A DNA stretch of 64,000 nucleotides from an uncultured Eubacteriales bacterium. GTDB taxonomy: Bacteria; Actinomycetota; Coriobacteriia; Anaerosomatales; CAVRZR01. Positions 15,369 to 63,626 of the stretch are shown piece by piece. The number at the start of each line of letters is the position of its first letter. Within the stretch, counting starts at the first letter, position 1. The notes under the pieces were generated by a model. It saw only the letters and a list, made by a program, of their open reading frames with translations, made no database searches and was not told the origin of the DNA. The stretch lies in the NCBI GenBank assembly GCA_964354215.1, contig CAYGYT010000001.1:146054-210053 (forward strand), read 5' to 3'. Position numbers and translations under genes: made by a program.

Positions 15369-15480
15369 GGCATGCGGTCGCGCGCCGGGGCGTTCCTCGG
15401 CTCGGCCACGTGAAGCCCGACCGCGCCGGTGGTGCTTGGCGCGCCCGGACCGCTCCCTCCCTCGTCGCAAGGATTTGGCA

Positions 15481-15662
15481 CTGTCCGACGTAGGACGCGC
15501 GCGCGGGTTCGCGCGACGCAGTGGGATTGCCCACCCCATGATCCAGCCACCTTAGCCTTCGCCTTAAGCCGGCGAGGGCTGTTCTACCCATTGGCGTCTC
15601 TCGACATTTCCGGGCAGTGGCCTGTGTTCGAACAGGAGCCGCACCGTAACGGACGGAGCGCT
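15481..15662 (-). promoter_or_regulatory. M-box (ykoK leader) Mg2+ riboswitch aptamer
   Basis: The minus strand reads CCGUUACGGUGCGGCUCCUGU ... CUGCCCGGAAAUGUCGAGAGACGCCAAUGGGUAGAACAG ... CUUAAGG ... GGCUGGAU ... CCUACGUCGGAC. This parallels the B. subtilis mgtE leader blocks GUUAGGUGAGGCUCCUGU, CUGCCCAAAAAUGUCCAAAGACGCUAAUGGGUCAACAG, UAAGG, GCUGGAU and CUACG. The closing P1 helix is GUCCG/CGGAC. Confidence 0.8.
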
Positions 15663-24237: not shown

Positions 24238-24313
24238 TGGTGCCCCCGGCAGGATTCGAACCTGCGACACCAGGTTTAGGAAACCTGTGCTCTATCCCCT
24301 GAGCTACGAGGGC
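24238..24313 (-). tRNA. tRNA-Arg (anticodon CCT)
   Basis: The minus strand reads GCCCTCG-TA-GCTCAGGGGATAGAGC-A-CAGGT-TTCCTAA-ACCTG-GTGTC-GCAGGTTCGAATCCTGC-CGGGGGC-A-CCA. The cloverleaf is complete with a 7 bp acceptor stem (one G-U pair) and an encoded CCA. Confidence 0.9.
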
Positions 24314-47807: not shown

Positions 47808-47893
47808 GCGGGTGTGGCGGAATGGCAGACGCGCATGGTTCAGGTCCATGTGGGGGCAACCCCGTGAAGGTTCAACTCCTTTCACCCGCACCA
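47808..47893 (+). tRNA. tRNA-Leu (anticodon CAG)
   Basis: The sequence reads GCGGGTG-TG-GCGGAATGGCAGACGC-G-CATGG-TTCAGGT-CCATG, a long variable arm, GAAGGTTCAACTCCTTT-CACCCGC-A-CCA. The acceptor stem is perfect and the class II variable arm fits Leu. Confidence 0.9.
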
Positions 47894-58424: not shown

Positions 58425-59945
58425 GTGGCGCACCGGGGGCGGGCAGTCGCCAGCGCCGACGAGCGCGCGTACTTGTATGCGCGCGGTATCGTGCTTGCCA
58501 CGCTCACCTTCTTGTACGTCTCCGACCTGCTTGAACTGCCCGATCAGACCGCGAGCACGTACTACGTCGCGGCCATCACGGGATTCGCGCTTGTCGGCGC
58601 CCTTCAGGTCTGGGCATTCCTCGTTCGACGAATACCGCTCCAGCGGACCATGCCGTACGCGCTGCCCTTCGACTTGGTGTGCATCGGCTTGTTCACGTCG
58701 GCGCTGGCCGAGTCGGGCAACTTGGGCTACCCGATCGCCATAACCTGGCCCGTTCTGTACGCGCTTGTGATGCGGCGGCGTCAAGCGTGGGTGGTTGGTG
58801 GTCTGACCGCGATCATCTACCTCGTAGGTATGCTCTCGGTCCCGCTCGAGAGCTGGGCCCAATTCGCCGAGTTGACGATCCGCGCGCTCGTCATCGTGGC
58901 GGTGAGCGGCCGCATCGCGTACTCGGAAGAGCTGCAGCGCGAGCGAGAAGAACAGGCGCAGCGCGCCAATGCCGAGAATGAGCGGCTCAATGCGGAGTTG
59001 CAGTCGAGCCTGAGTGAGCTCCAGGCGCTTTTCGAGATCAGCGATCACATCCACGCGAGTCTCGACGTTGATGCTGCCGCGCAGCCCGTCCTGGAGACCG
59101 TCGCGCGAACGCTCGGCCTCGAGGCGTGCTGCATGTACGTCGTGGAGAAGTCCACGGATGCAGTAGTCTTCAGCGCCTCGATCGGCGTGCCCCTCGACGT
59201 TGCGCTGCCGGGAGCTCCAAGCTGCGACCGTCGAATCGAAGATGAGGACCTCGAGCTGGCGCTCTCGTGCATGTGCCCGTTCGACCAGCCGCACATGCGG
59301 CTCGTCTTCTGCGCCGCCGCCCACGATCTCGAACGGCTCTCCGAGAACGATCACCTTGTGCTTCAGGCAATCGGGCACGAAGTCGCGGAAGCGGTCGAGA
59401 ACTCCCAGCTCTACAAGCTCACGAAGCGTATGGCGGTCACAGACGAACTAACCGGTCTCTACAACTACCGCTACCTGCAGCAGCACATTGCCGATGAGGT
59501 CTCGCGGGCGGGCCGCTACAAGGGGTTCGCAACGCTGCTCATGATCGACTGTGATGACTTCAAGGCATTCAACGACCTGTACGGGCACGTGGCAGGTGAC
59601 GAAGTCCTCGCCGAACTCGGCCACGTCTTCACGGACAACGTCCGCGACGTCGATCTGGTAGCGCGATACGGCGGCGAGGAGTTCTCGGTGCTCCTACCGG
59701 AGACCGACATGATGGGTGGGGTCGCTGCCGCCGAGAAGCTTCGCGACGCCGTCGCCGAGCACGAGTTCCAGGCTCCCTACAATCGCAAGTTGAGCGTGAG
59801 CATCGGGATCGCGACGTACCCGACGCATGGCCGTGATGCGGAGTCCCTGCTACGCGCGGCAGACGATGCTCTGTACGGTGCCAAGAACAGCGGGAAGAAC
59901 CAGGTTCACACTCCGGGCGTGTACGACGGCCAGCCAGTGTGGTAG
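58425..59945 (+). CDS. Polytopic membrane GAF-like/GGDEF diguanylate cyclase
   Basis: About six N-terminal TM helices and a coiled coil are followed by DELTGLYNYRY, RYGGEEFSVLLP and an RxxD-free region. The GTG start at 58425 is tentative. Confidence 0.8.
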   Translation: MAHRGRAVASADERAYLYARGIVLATLTFLYVSDLLELPDQTASTYYVAAITGFALVGALQVWAFLVRRIPLQRTMPYALPFDLVCIGLFTSALAESGNLGYPIAITWPVLYALVMRRRQAWVVGGLTAIIYLVGMLSVPLESWAQFAELTIRALVIVAVSGRIAYSEELQREREEQAQRANAENERLNAELQSSLSELQALFEISDHIHASLDVDAAAQPVLETVARTLGLEACCMYVVEKSTDAVVFSASIGVPLDVALPGAPSCDRRIEDEDLELALSCMCPFDQPHMRLVFCAAAHDLERLSENDHLVLQAIGHEVAEAVENSQLYKLTKRMAVTDELTGLYNYRYLQQHIADEVSRAGRYKGFATLLMIDCDDFKAFNDLYGHVAGDEVLAELGHVFTDNVRDVDLVARYGGEEFSVLLPETDMMGGVAAAEKLRDAVAEHEFQAPYNRKLSVSIGIATYPTHGRDAESLLRAADDALYGAKNSGKNQVHTPGVYDGQPVW

Positions 59946-59985: not shown

Positions 59986-60807
59986 ATGCCCCGCTACGCG
60001 TTCCTCGGTCCCGAAGGGACTTACTCCGAAGAAGCCCTGCTGAGCTTGAACCTCCCCGGCGCGGAACCGGTGGCATGCGCCACCATCGGGGAGGTGTTCC
60101 TCGCCGTGGAGTCCGGCAAGGCAGACGCGGGCGTCGTGCCGATCGAGAACTCGGTCGAAGGCAGCGTCAACGCCACCCTCGACGCGCTCGCGTTCGATCA
60201 TGACCTGTCGATCAGCCGAGAGATCGTGCTCAACATCCATCACTCGCTCGTGGGCGCGCCAGGCCTCAAAGTCGCCGACGTCACCGAGATCGTTGGGCAT
60301 CCGCAGGCAACGGGGCAGTGCCGCAAGTGGATCGCCCGCACCCTGCCGAGCAAGCCGATCGTCGCGGCGAATTCGAATGCCGAGGCAGTGCAGATCGCGG
60401 TCGCTTCACCGGGGGTCGCGGCGATCGGGCCGGCACTCGCCGCATCGCTCTACGGCGGAGAGGTGCTGGTGGAGGATGTCGAGGACTTCGCGGGCAACCA
60501 GACGCGCTTCGTCATGGTCGGCAGGGAGTCTGCGGAGCGCACAGGGAAGGACAAGACGTCGCTCGCGCTCTTCTTGAGAGCCGACAAGCCAGGCGCGCTT
60601 CTGATGATCCTGTCCGAGTTCGCCTACGGGGACATCAACCTCACGAAACTCCAGTCCCGTCCCACCAAGCGGGCGCTCGGCGACTACATGTTCTTCATCG
60701 ACCTCGAGGGGCATGTCGACGACGAGAACGTGCAGCTCGCGCTCAACTGCCTGCGCCTCAAGCTTCGAACCGTTAAGGTGCTCGGCAGCTACCCGCGCGC
60801 GAAGTAG
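59986..60807 (+). CDS. pheA: Prephenate dehydratase
   Basis: Blocks seen: YAFLGPEGTYSEEA, VPIENS.EGSV, N.TRF, and the ACT-domain blocks TSL.F.....PGAL and NLTKLQSRP. Confidence 0.9.
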   Translation: MPRYAFLGPEGTYSEEALLSLNLPGAEPVACATIGEVFLAVESGKADAGVVPIENSVEGSVNATLDALAFDHDLSISREIVLNIHHSLVGAPGLKVADVTEIVGHPQATGQCRKWIARTLPSKPIVAANSNAEAVQIAVASPGVAAIGPALAASLYGGEVLVEDVEDFAGNQTRFVMVGRESAERTGKDKTSLALFLRADKPGALLMILSEFAYGDINLTKLQSRPTKRALGDYMFFIDLEGHVDDENVQLALNCLRLKLRTVKVLGSYPRAK

Positions 60808-60975
60808 CAACGCAGGCCTGAGACGCAGGCAGTGGGAGCTCTGCCGCTCTCGCCCGCCGCTCCCCGGCTATACCGCACCATTCGGCTGGGTAATGCGCCG
60901 GTTTGCTGGCCTTATGGCGTGGCGCTCGCTATGATGCACCGCATCCTCGACGTGAAGGAGGTGGATTCGAGGACC

Positions 60976-61083
60976 GTGGCACGCACGCTTTCGCTCGTGA
61001 CGATGATGGACATGATGATGACCCAGCCCGGGTCTTGGCGCGTATGCGCTGGAACCGGGCGGCTTTCGCTGCTCGCCTCGTAG
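60976..61083 (+). promoter_or_regulatory. Candidate Met-codon-rich leader peptide ORF upstream of metY
   Basis: An in-frame run ATG ATG GAC ATG ATG ATG lies at 61003..61020. A possible GTG start at 60976 sits 14 nt after AAGGAGG (60955..60961). The stop at 61081..61083 is 53 nt before the metY ATG. The ORF limits are tentative. Confidence 0.3.
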
Positions 61084-61136
61084 GCGGGCTCATCTGCAGT
61101 CCACATCAGACACGACCGAAAGTGAGGTACCGAGCC

Positions 61137-62438
61137 ATGAGTGACTCGTCCACCCCCCGTTTCGATACGCTTGCGATCCACGCCGGGCAGGTCCCCGATC
61201 CCACCACCGGATCGCGCGCCGTCCCGATCTATCAGACCGTCGCGTACAACTTCCGCGACACGGAGCACGCCGCGAACCTCTTCGGCTTACGCGAGTTCGG
61301 CAACATCTACTCGCGGATCATGAACCCCACGAACGACGTGCTCGAGCAGCGCATCGCCGCCCTGCACGGAGGCACAGCCGCTCTCGCCGTCTCGTCAGGA
61401 CACGCCGCCGAGAACCTCGCGCTCCTGAACCTCGCGGACTCGGGCGATTCGATCGTGAGCTCTACTTCGCTCTACGGCGGCACCTGGAACATCTTCCTGC
61501 ACACGTTCAAGCGCCTCGGCATCACCGTGCGCTTCGTCGAGCCCACTGACATCCAGGGTTTCGTCGACGCAACGGACGACACAACGAAGGCATGGTTCAT
61601 CGAGACGATCGGCAACCCGCGTCTCGACGTCCCCGATCTCGCGCCCCTCGCTGCCGCCGGCCGCGAGCTTGGCGTGCCGCTGGTCGTGGACAACACGTTC
61701 GCGACGCCGTACCTCACTCGTCCGATCGAGCACGGCGCTGCGGTCGTCATCGAGTCGCTCACGAAGTGGCTCGGCGGACACGGCACCTCGATAGGTGGCG
61801 CGATCGTCGACGGTGGCAACTTCGACTGGGGCAACGGTCGCTTCCCGCACTTCACCGAGGGCGACCCGAGCTACCACGGACTGAAGTACTGGGACGTCTT
61901 CGGCGACTTCCCGGGTCTGGGCAACGTCGCCTTCGGCATACGCGCGCGCGTGCAGCTGCAGCGTGACTTCGGCGCGGCGCTCTCACCGTTCAACGCGCAG
62001 CAGTTCATCCTTGGAGTGGAGACGTTGTCGCTTCGCCTCGAGCGCCACTCTCAGAACGCTCTGGCGGTCGCGAAGTATCTCGAATCGCACCCGAAGGTCG
62101 ACTGGGTCATCTACCCCGGCCTGACGTCGCATCCCACGAAGGCGAACGCCGACCGCTACCTCACGCACGGCTACGGCGGCGTTGTGGTCTTCGGCGTGAA
62201 GGGCGGGCTTGAGGCCGGCAAGAAGCTCATCGACTCCGTAGAGCTCTTCAGCCACCTTGCGAACGTGGGAGACGCGAAGTCGCTCATCATCCACCCTGCC
62301 TCCACCACGCACTCCCAGCTCTCAGAAGAGGAGCTCGTTCGCGCCGGAATCGGCCCGGACTTCGTCCGCCTTGCGGTGGGCATCGAGGACGTCGCCGACA
62401 TCCTGGCCGATCTGGACCAGGCACTCGAGCGGGTGTAG
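61137..62438 (+). CDS. metY: O-acetylhomoserine sulfhydrylase (aminocarboxypropyltransferase)
   Basis: Blocks seen: RFDTLAIHAGQ.PDP.TG.RAVPIYQT..Y.F, NPT.DVLE.R.A.LEGG, ESLTKWLGGHGT.IGG and HPASTTH. Confidence 0.9.
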   Translation: MSDSSTPRFDTLAIHAGQVPDPTTGSRAVPIYQTVAYNFRDTEHAANLFGLREFGNIYSRIMNPTNDVLEQRIAALHGGTAALAVSSGHAAENLALLNLADSGDSIVSSTSLYGGTWNIFLHTFKRLGITVRFVEPTDIQGFVDATDDTTKAWFIETIGNPRLDVPDLAPLAAAGRELGVPLVVDNTFATPYLTRPIEHGAAVVIESLTKWLGGHGTSIGGAIVDGGNFDWGNGRFPHFTEGDPSYHGLKYWDVFGDFPGLGNVAFGIRARVQLQRDFGAALSPFNAQQFILGVETLSLRLERHSQNALAVAKYLESHPKVDWVIYPGLTSHPTKANADRYLTHGYGGVVVFGVKGGLEAGKKLIDSVELFSHLANVGDAKSLIIHPASTTHSQLSEEELVRAGIGPDFVRLAVGIEDVADILADLDQALERV

Positions 62439-62441
62439 GCG

Positions 62442-63626
62442 ATGAGCGGCACGAACGTCGGCTCGCCTCCCCCCGAGGCGCGGCTCGTGACGCTGGACGG
62501 CGAGGTGAGACTCTCCTCAGGGCAGAGTCTCACCTCCGTGCAGGTCGCGTACGAGACGTTCGGCGAACTCAACGAGAAGAAATCGAATGCCGTGCTGATC
62601 TGCCACGCGCTGTCCGGCGACTCGCACGTCACAAGTGGGGCCAGCGGGCGCGAAGGCTGGTGGGAGCCGCTCGTGGGACCGGGCCGGGCCATCGACACCG
62701 ACCGCCTGCACGTGATCTGCAGCAACGTGCTCGGAGGGTGCAGCGGCACGACCGGTCCGGGCTCGATCGATTCCGCGACCGGCAAGCGGTACGGCCGGAG
62801 CTTCCCGCTCGTCACCGTCGAGGACATGGTGGACGCGCAGATCCGCGTGCTCGACGAGCTTGGCATCGAGCGGCTCGCGGCGGTCATCGGCGGCTCGATG
62901 GGCGGCATGCAGGCGCTCGCGTGGGGCAAGCGCTATCCACACCGCGTCGCATCCGTGATCGCGGATGCGACGACCCCGCGTCTCGCGGCCCAGGCGATCG
63001 GCTTCAACGAGGTCGGCCGCCAGGCCATACTCGAGGACCCGGCCTTCGCGGACGGCGACTACTACGACAACGCGGTGCAGCCCGACGCGGGTCTCGCGAT
63101 CGCACGCATGATCGGGCACATCACGTACCTCTCGGACGAGTCGATGCGCGAGAAGTTCGGCCGGCGGCTGAAGGACCGCGACGACTACGCGTTCGAGTTC
63201 GTGCACGAGTTCGAGGTAGAGACCTATCTTGCCCACCAGGGGAGGCGCTTTATCGAGCGCTTCGACGCGAACACGTATCTCTACATGACGAAGGCGATGG
63301 ACTACTTCGATCTGTGCGGGAGTGATGCGAGCCTCGCCGAGGCTGTCGCAGGCATGCCCGAGCGCTTCCTCGTGCTCTCGTTCTCGAGTGACTGGCTCTT
63401 CCCGACCTACCAGGCACGGCAGCTCGTTGACGCGTTGCTCGTCACCGGGAAGGCGGTCACATTCGCCGAGGTCCCCAGCCCCTACGGCCACGACGCGTTC
63501 CTGCTCGAGGTGGACGCGCAGACCGCACTCGTCAGGCCGTTTCTCGAGAACTCGGTGCGCGCGAACGGCGCTCAACTGAGAGGCGTCTTGCCGAGCGGGC
63601 CGCTGACAAAGGCGGTGGCATCATGA
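62442..63626 (+). CDS. metX: Homoserine O-acetyltransferase
   Basis: Blocks seen: NAVLICHALSGDSH, GWW..LVGPG.AIDT....VIC.N.LG.C.G.TGP, GGSMGGMQAL.W and D.LFP. Confidence 0.9.
   Translation: MSGTNVGSPPPEARLVTLDGEVRLSSGQSLTSVQVAYETFGELNEKKSNAVLICHALSGDSHVTSGASGREGWWEPLVGPGRAIDTDRLHVICSNVLGGCSGTTGPGSIDSATGKRYGRSFPLVTVEDMVDAQIRVLDELGIERLAAVIGGSMGGMQALAWGKRYPHRVASVIADATTPRLAAQAIGFNEVGRQAILEDPAFADGDYYDNAVQPDAGLAIARMIGHITYLSDESMREKFGRRLKDRDDYAFEFVHEFEVETYLAHQGRRFIERFDANTYLYMTKAMDYFDLCGSDASLAEAVAGMPERFLVLSFSSDWLFPTYQARQLVDALLVTGKAVTFAEVPSPYGHDAFLLEVDAQTALVRPFLENSVRANGAQLRGVLPSGPLTKAVAS

Follow-up and report, generated by a model that had tools for sequence, protein, structure and literature searches.

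A conserved leader open reading frame with a methionine-codon run, paired with the metY start site: a proposed translational attenuator in uncultured Actinomycetota

The metY gene in the stretch of DNA analysed here (the window, 64,000 nucleotides from an uncultured member of the Actinomycetota) is preceded by a short leader open reading frame (ORF) that carries a run of methionine codons, and the initiation region of this ORF forms a long-range RNA helix, P1, with the initiation region of metY itself. The ORF and its run are conserved among relatives, and the two strands of the helix have co-evolved. We propose, with moderate confidence, that this arrangement, referred to below as the metY element, is a ribosome-mediated translational attenuator which senses charged Met-tRNA and controls metY, and probably metX and metW through metY. 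Translation of the ORF, stalling of ribosomes on the run when methionine is limiting and the queuing of a second ribosome behind the first are inferred; the two-ribosome detail is held with less confidence than the assignment to the attenuator class.

A conserved leader ORF directly upstream of metY

The leader lies between a prephenate dehydratase gene, which ends at 60807, and metY (O-acetylhomoserine sulfhydrylase, 61137..62438), the regulated gene in our proposal; coordinates are those of the window and, unless stated otherwise, of its plus strand. The start codon of metY is the ATG at 61137, not 61138, and the gene is followed by metX (62442-63626) and metW (63623 to the end of the window), the three identities being those of the NCBIfam models TIGR01326, NF001209 and TIGR02081, respectively. 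The leader ORF (VARTLSLVTMMDMMMTQPGSWRVCAGTGRLSLLAS) extends over 35 codons, from GTG at 60976 to TAG at 61081-61083. Its Shine-Dalgarno (SD) sequence, AAGGAGGTG, occupies 60955..60963 and is separated from the start codon by a spacer at 60964..60975. In frame with the GTG are the codons ATG ATG GAC ATG ATG ATG at 61003-61020, which together with the preceding ACG make up a seven-codon regulatory run (codons 9-15, 61000..61020) with five methionine codons here and six in most relatives. Re-reading of the sequence bore out the coordinates, sequence and frame of the run, as well as the GTG start and the stop, as they had been given in a first-pass annotation of this DNA. The element had been placed there at 60950-61136; its location before metY stands, while its true extent, from 60955 to ~61157, reaches into metY.

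The first-pass annotation had also considered the run unlikely by chance, and the composition of the window (67% G+C, with an ATG frequency of 0.012) is in agreement with this view. Exactly one stretch of six codons with at least five ATG occurs in the window, against a binomial expectation of 2e-4 per window, and none of 200 first-order Markov simulations gave such a stretch; the run is therefore not a product of chance. When the 18-mer of the run was sought with up to three mismatches, it was found once, against 0.03 occurrences expected.

A one-genome-per-species scan with MetY returned 36 loci from uncultured Coriobacteriia-like Actinomycetota, with a MetY identity of 77-86%. The related loci with upstream DNA number 35, with the window counted in and L032, which begins inside metY, left out. 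The same leader arrangement is found in 34 of these 35: a GGAGGTG motif, an ATG or GTG 13-16 nt past GGAGG, and an ORF of 25-40 codons, of which codons 8/9 to 14/15 read M-x-M-D-M-x-M, followed by T-x-P-G-S. Wherever the run is found it is in frame with the conserved SD and start codon, and it always begins at codon 8 or 9. The GGAGGTG of the SD is invariant in all 33 aligned leaders (columns G10-G16), and its distance from the start codon stays between 13 and 16 nt, counted from the end of GGAGG, in all loci. The gene order short ORF-metY-metX-metW is likewise common to the relatives.

The sole related locus without the leader ORF is L012, from the metagenome-assembled genome of an uncultured member of the Coriobacteriia with a MetY 82% identical; its metY begins ~130 nt after the upstream gene, with no methionine run between them, and this may represent either loss of the element or a second copy of metY. 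Among 46 further metY loci (45 from other phyla or archaea, together with L012), only two weak stretches with three Met in seven positions were seen, neither resembling the element.

The association with metY extends to metagenomes. An exact-pattern scan of metagenome contigs yielded 120 stretches, of which 11 have the full element, each of them (11/11) directly 5' of metY; the other 109 are chance matches within unrelated coding DNA and were set aside. A profile search with the peptide found 66 homologous predicted proteins with the consensus MxMDMxM-T-x-PGS, all of them unnamed or 'hypothetical' except for one evident mislabel (MoaB). Neither Pfam nor NCBIfam has a family for the leader peptide, and no Pfam domain was detected in its 66 homologues. 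Two divergent peptides were traced to their contigs, where they too precede metY(-metX-metW), with different genes upstream. Every instance examined (34 genome loci, 11 metagenome loci and the two contig look-ups) thus lies directly 5' of metY, whatever gene precedes it, and ~100 natural variants of the element were found in all. The persistence of the run in orthologous leaders, proposed as a check with the first-pass annotation, is borne out by these counts. It can be surmised from their sequences, with fair rather than high confidence, that the short ORFs annotated as 'hypothetical protein' in metagenomes of this uncultured Coriobacteriia lineage are regulatory.

The start of the leader is often misplaced in databases. 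Gene callers frequently lengthen the ORF at its 5' end to 43-67 residues through in-frame sequence that is not conserved, as in the window (60832-61083, plus strand) and in the database peptides P0004, P0009, P0016, P0040, P0048 and P0063-P0066. The ATG ATG at 60931-60936 of the window overlaps a putative -10 box, and the conserved start is the one that lies 13-16 nt past GGAGG.

A co-evolving helix that joins the two start sites

The 205 nt from 60954 to 61158 fold with an energy of -101.9 kcal/mol (z = -5.3), a value that none of 200 dinucleotide shuffles equalled. For the leader of the window the minimum-energy structure is identical to the centroid, and the same minimum-energy architecture is obtained for all 33 distinct leaders. 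The key pairing is the long-range helix P1, which had gone unseen in the first-pass annotation. The 5' strand of P1 (60957..61021) takes in the final GGUG of the leader SD and continues through the spacer, the start codon and codons 2-8 of the ORF to the methionine run, and its 3' strand (61090..61157) comprises a C-rich segment opposite the run (61090-61112), the metY SD region with GAGG at 61124-61127, the metY start codon (61137-61139) and metY codons 2-7. At the base of the helix, the end of the leader SD (60957-60965) pairs with a conserved anti-SD-like stretch, UCCACCCCC in the window, situated within the metY coding region (61149-61157), and the spacer pairs with metY codons 3-6. The start codon of metY pairs with that of the leader, as UCAUGG/CCAUGA in most loci.

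Atop P1, three hairpins are stacked as a four-way junction. P2 (61026..61060) has an invariant base, GCCCGG/CCGGGC, and an apical stem that varies and covaries; P3 (61061..61070) is a small hairpin, GGC-UUUC-GCU, with a GGCC-loop-GGCC equivalent in most relatives; and P4 (61071..61089) has the leader stop TAG within its loop and 3' arm. The stop codon of most relatives likewise lies in or beside the P4 loop, and the sequence of P4 is lineage-specific yet still forms a hairpin. The junction has essentially one unpaired nucleotide, which is variable (A, G or C), and the loops of P2, P3 and P4 are variable as well. Several GC helices noticed earlier had been described as mutually exclusive, which is not the case: CCCGG/CCGGG (P2), GGC/GCU (P3) and CGCC-TCGTA-GGCG (P4) coexist, because P2, P3 and P4 are arms of one junction. 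The base of P2 (61026-61031 / 61055-61060) holds the palindrome CCCGGG and is invariant in 33 leaders, with no covariation, while the neighbouring helices vary freely; this may reflect an alternative pairing, dimerisation or a bound factor.

The sequestering helix P1 is real and selected. Since its 3' strand is too rich in indels for sequence alignment (RNAalifold on a plain MAFFT alignment recovered the invariant P2 base only), alignment-free tests were used, in which the pairing energy of each 5' strand with its own, cognate 3' strand is compared with that obtained with foreign, non-cognate 3' strands. The energies for leader codons 2-8 against metY positions -32..-4 are -17.0 kcal/mol for cognate and -12.8 kcal/mol for non-cognate strands, and those for the spacer against metY codons 2-10 are -17.3 and -12.9 kcal/mol (permutation p<1e-4 for both). 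For the whole lower P1 in 10 de-replicated lineages (<75% identity), the corresponding values are -41.1 and -28.6 kcal/mol (permutation p<1e-4), the cognate strand being the best 5' partner for 10/10 of the 3' strands. The compensatory changes can be followed as a series, namely GGUGCGAC/GUCGCACC (L025), GGUGCGGU/ACCGCACC (L024), GGUGUGAUC/GAUCACACC (L046), GGUGGA/UCCACC (window), GGUGGGAG/CUCCCAUC (L021) and GGUGAACCG/CGGUUCAUC (L027).

In the parts that align well, that is the helix between the two start codons and P2, the share of paired cells is 86%, as compared with 25-45% when the partners are slid; changes on both sides are seen in eight pairs, and none of 500 shuffles reaches the observed score. 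For P2, helix 2 is 93% paired, and four of the five pairs of the apical helix show changes on both sides. The covariation of P2 is weak if counted in the register of the window, because the window uses a shifted register of the apical stem, and gives a clear signal in the majority register. In 21 of 31 loci, the methionine run forms a better pairing with its own downstream partner than with shuffled ones.

The possibility that the leader forms part of metY was considered and rejected. In the window, the metY frame remains open for 78 more codons 5' of the ATG (ORF 60903..62438, plus strand) and reads DDDGHDDD (...ARDDDGHDDDPARV...) across the run, which could mislead gene callers to an N-terminally extended MetY. 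The phase between run and metY is 0, 1 and 2 in 15, 10 and 8 loci, respectively, so that the open frame of the window is accidental; moreover, the metY frame is closed 3-20 codons upstream in about half of the loci.

Selection on the run and a proposed ribosome-based switch

The run is kept in a manner that its pairing alone does not account for. Its mean pairwise identity is 92% and that of its pairing partner 56%, unlike the strands of lower P1, which evolve at equal rates (65% and 67% mean pairwise identity); this argues for a constraint beyond pairing, namely reading as methionine codons. Similarly, the leader SD is invariant while its pairing partner varies, which points to a constraint beyond pairing there as well and to a real ribosome-binding site. 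Positions 1, 3, 5 and 7 of the seven-codon run are Met in 59-65 of 65 database peptides, at least three Met codons are always kept in the run, and the central Asp changes to Glu, Asn or Gly only. Substitutions within the run are conservative and concern whole codons (ATG to GCG, CTG, GTG, AAG, GAG and others), the resulting residue changes including M to L, V, I and A.

A conserved peptide could also be expected of a functional Met-rich micropeptide, for instance metal-binding or membrane-associated, that adjoins metY by accident, and the N-terminal 20 residues (MxMDMxMTxPGS) are indeed well conserved in the ~100 variants. However, in L003, L005 and L019 single-base indels 3' of PGS throw the ORF out of frame or end it early, the nucleotides being otherwise unchanged, which means that the C-terminal half is conserved as nucleotides and not as peptide. 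The variation of residue 17 (Q, R, W, S, G or P) coincides exactly with the single unpaired junction nucleotide of the RNA, as expected if that nucleotide is free, and the position of the stop ranges over 25-40 codons. The frame breaks after PGS and the variable residue 17 argue against a functional peptide, and we regard such a micropeptide as very improbable.

Searches for known RNA sensors were consistently negative. In Rfam, the region 60700-61300 gave no match to an S-adenosylmethionine (SAM) class riboswitch or any other riboswitch even at E<=10; the models for SAM-I, IV, I/IV, II, V, III, VI and SAM-SAH did not match the leader, neither they nor any other Rfam model matched 12 related loci at the gathering score, and the T-box covariance model found nothing in the leader or the same 12 loci. 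An intrinsic terminator scan of 60700-61300 was also negative, and no U tract follows P4 in the leaders of relatives. The first-pass annotation, which had noted neither a SAM riboswitch signature nor a clear U-tract terminator, is upheld on both points. Across the whole window, the only Rfam matches at the gathering score are an M-box (magnesium) riboswitch on the minus strand (15452-15660; 122.5 bits against a gathering score of 44) and two tRNA genes, at 24241-24313 (minus strand) and 47808-47890 (plus strand). The same search detected SAM-I riboswitches 5' of metY in two Chloroflexi loci (L044, 2615-2736, and L047, 952-1055), so that the RNA sensor at this gene would differ from phylum to phylum.

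These searches bear on the hypothesis that the element is a riboswitch or a protein-binding RNA, in which the P2-P4 junction with its GCCCGGG/CCGGGCGG core would bind SAM, methionine, homocysteine or a protein, P1 would be stabilised and metY blocked, and the small ORF would be incidental or auxiliary. A P1 that closes a multi-helix domain over a start site is the usual layout of actinobacterial riboswitches (PMC1262725), and the authors who described the similar LEU element, to which we return below, favoured a protein as its ligand (PMC1262725). The base of P2, invariant in 33 sequences without covariation, also suggests a constraint beyond pairing. Against these points stand the absence of any Rfam match even at the permissive threshold and the variability of the sole unpaired junction nucleotide and of all hairpin loops, with no conserved pocket visible; the absence of conserved unpaired nucleotides argues against a ligand pocket. 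This hypothesis would also fail to account for an SD and start that are invariant, for a run that keeps its frame and position, and for the gap in conservation between the run and its partner. We therefore consider it unlikely, if the least improbable of the alternatives discussed here.

The mechanism that we favour is a translational attenuator that reads charged Met-tRNA. In the naked RNA, P1 would pair the leader initiation region and the first 15 codons with the metY SD area, the AUG and the first seven codons, so as to lock both start sites, and the P2-P4 junction would keep the two strands together. The leader start would emerge from the polymerase ~170-200 nt before its partner strand, so that ribosomes could load there before P1 forms. 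With ample Met-tRNA, ribosomes would clear the short ORF, P1 would close and metY would stay untranslated. With scarce Met-tRNA, the first ribosome would stall with an AUG in its A site at codons 11-15; with a run that starts at codon 8 or 9, the invariant Met codons fall at 10/11, 12/13 and 14/15. A stall at one ribosome length from the start would trap the next ribosome on the leader start region, and the stalled and queued ribosomes together would cover the 5' strand, hold P1 open and leave the metY start exposed and translated. An untranslated metY could add Rho-dependent polarity on metX and metW.

The queue was introduced into this model as the result of constraint folding at equilibrium. 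In the free RNA, the metY AUG is 15% unpaired and the leader start codon 4% unpaired. A lone ribosome, whichever position it is given on the run and also when put at the stop codon, leaves the metY AUG 15% unpaired, while occupation of the leader start region along with the run raises this to 49-56%. A single stalled ribosome that melts the sequestering helix is therefore not supported at equilibrium. This follows from the anatomy, the metY AUG being hidden by the initiation region of the leader itself and not by the run, and the model was accordingly revised to a stalled and a queued ribosome. It is conceivable, though we hold the idea as speculative and rather doubtful, that the sensor is ribosome collision itself, in a bistable co-transcriptional switch whose two start sites lock each other and are unlocked by a two-ribosome queue; this would be the first leader-peptide methionine sensor. 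The suggestion of the first-pass annotation that ribosomes stall in response to Met-tRNA gains support from the retention of the run in relatives and from the negative riboswitch searches, its function remaining a matter of interpretation; the suggestion that control is translational and not terminator-based fits with the negative terminator scan and with a metY start buried in a co-evolving helix.

Several considerations weigh against the attenuator. As a single stall fails at equilibrium, the model needs a second ribosome or a kinetic, co-transcriptional argument. The leader start is further from its SD (12 nt past AAGGAGGTG, 14 nt past GGAGG) than suits efficient initiation, and folding of the RNA leaves this start codon 96% paired. 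Initiator fMet-tRNA, too, becomes scarce under methionine limitation, and this could dull the response of such a sensor. The invariant base of P2 is left unexplained by the model. All instances come from uncultured organisms and are known from sequence and predicted folding. Finally, mutations of the Leu codons in the LEU element have been reported to be without effect on regulation (PMC1262725).

Two further explanations accept the helix and differ in what it does. In constitutive translational coupling, translation of the leader would unfold P1 and set a fixed level of metY, the Met codons being kept for reasons of RNA structure or peptide, with no sensing of methionine. The folding results lend themselves to this view, in that the metY AUG opens upon occupancy of the leader start whatever happens at the run, and in Actinobacteria some leader ORFs have been proposed to do no more than raise downstream translation (PMC4833913). 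Four to six codons for the very amino acid that the pathway makes would, however, be superfluous for coupling; conservation of the run goes well past the needs of pairing, and the element is found at metY only. We consider simple coupling improbable.

The other explanation places the output at the level of the transcript: with P1 closed and metY untranslated, Rho would terminate inside metY, or RNase III would cut, and control would act through polarity or decay. In its favour are the lack of an intrinsic terminator, the close succession of metX and metW, which would have to be co-regulated, the C-rich and G-poor strand at 61090-61120, and the Rho-dependent attenuation suggested for terminator-less actinobacterial cys leaders (PMC1262725). 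This output would nevertheless come after the same ribosome sensor, as an added layer and not in its stead, and the C-rich strand would be exposed at the starvation stall, so that Rho loading there would be of the wrong sign. As an account of the element it appears to us about as improbable as coupling.

The promoter of the metY operon may lie immediately upstream of the leader. A putative -10 hexamer, TATGAT, is located at 60930..60935; if it is the -10, transcription would start ~12 nt before the leader SD. A TTGAC-N15-20-(T/C)AnnnT arrangement is present 18-70 nt 5' of the SD in 14 of 32 relatives. A scan of the region for a strict sigma-70 consensus promoter gave no match, and the assignment is made by comparison with relatives alone. 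About 10 nt 5' of the TTGAC -35-like box, many related metY promoters have an inverted repeat, GC(A/G)C(C)-N5-9-(G)GTGCGG(A/T)(A/T)T, which in the window is found at 60873-60897 (CCGCACC-ATTC-GGCTGGGTAAT) and at the equivalent position in L002, L006, L007, L016, L024, L025, L028, L031 and others. It may be an operator for a DNA-binding regulator, that is, a second layer of metY control. Two genes 5' of metY, before pheA, the window encodes a GGDEF diguanylate cyclase with an N-terminal membrane region (58425-59945, plus strand).

Comparison with known systems

The synthesis of methionine in bacteria is controlled by SAM riboswitches, Met T-boxes and protein repressors, and to our knowledge methionine is absent from the amino acids with leader-peptide attenuators. 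In the literature library that was searched in full text, no report of a leader peptide with a methionine run was found. If the attenuator proposed here is real, methionine would join the amino acids that are sensed directly by the ribosome, a case of particular interest because methionine limitation also affects initiation. With its well-defined fold, the mutual sequestration of its start sites and its ~100 variants, the element would offer a compact, synthesisable system for the study of ribosome-queue sensing in vitro.

Classical leader-peptide attenuators, as known from the trp, his, leu, thr, ilv and phe operons, rely on a terminator hairpin with a U tract and an antiterminator. The metY element shares with them a short SD-bearing leader ORF, a run of end-product codons and, in our proposal, a ribosome whose position selects between RNA structures. 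It differs in that the terminator they require is missing here and that the proposed output is access to a start codon. Translational attenuators conceal the initiation region of the downstream gene in an RNA duplex made from upstream-ORF sequence, and such a duplex is present here. As in ermC and cat attenuation, a stall in the leader ORF is proposed to remodel a structure that hides the downstream start; stalling there is brought about by an antibiotic together with the nascent peptide and not by a shortage of aminoacyl-tRNA, and the short local hairpins of those systems contrast with a 200-nt helix that locks both starts here.

Two systems linked to methionine call for comparison. SAM riboswitches are located at the same genomic position as the metY element and serve the regulatory purpose proposed for that element, which for its part has no covariance-model match and no conserved ligand pocket, and has a Met-codon ORF instead. 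The only Met-dependent leader peptide that we found proposed for Actinobacteria is 'metL', located 5' of metNIQ in Streptomyces lividans (PMC8079986). Its sequence, MSTTSDRTPATEATTTPGARCMCRRMCAF, is unrelated and has two internal Met and no run; it is leaderless, precedes a transporter and is described from a single genome.

In architecture, the metY element appears closest to the LEU element upstream of leuA in Actinobacteria, in which a run of Leu codons pairs with the leuA SD (Seliverstov et al. 2005; PMC1262725); the same survey of Actinobacteria found no RNA element for methionine genes. The two have in common the phylum, an upstream ORF with a codon run for the amino acid of the pathway, a compact fold in which the base stem links this run with the initiation region of a biosynthetic gene, and the absence of both a terminator and conserved unpaired nucleotides. 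The LEU element, however, concerns leucine and leuA, is unrelated in sequence, and was proposed to contain a pseudoknot in place of the four-way junction. Its base stem is formed by the run and the SD, whereas here the run forms the upper helix, and it is with the SD, spacer and start of the leader itself that the AUG and early codons of metY are paired.

In mechanism, the closest counterparts would be the polycysteine leaderless short ORFs of mycobacteria, for which it was shown experimentally that ribosomes which have stalled within the polycysteine tracts obstruct structures by which the downstream ribosome-binding site is sequestered (Canestrari et al., bioRxiv 10.1101/834739). In both cases short ORFs rich in the end product stand 5' of metabolic genes, and control is translational and without a terminator, as we propose for metY. 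The polycysteine ORFs sense cysteine and are leaderless, in contrast to the invariant strong SD found here, and their stalled ribosome sits on the sequestering strand, whereas at metY it is the leader start region that hides the AUG. No sequence homology to the LEU element, the cysteine short ORFs or the erm leaders was detected by Rfam, Pfam or NCBIfam, and the likeness is architectural only. Four features set the metY element apart from both the LEU element and the polycysteine ORFs, namely its amino acid, its strong SD, the way in which two start sites lock each other, and where the run lies with respect to the sequestering strand.

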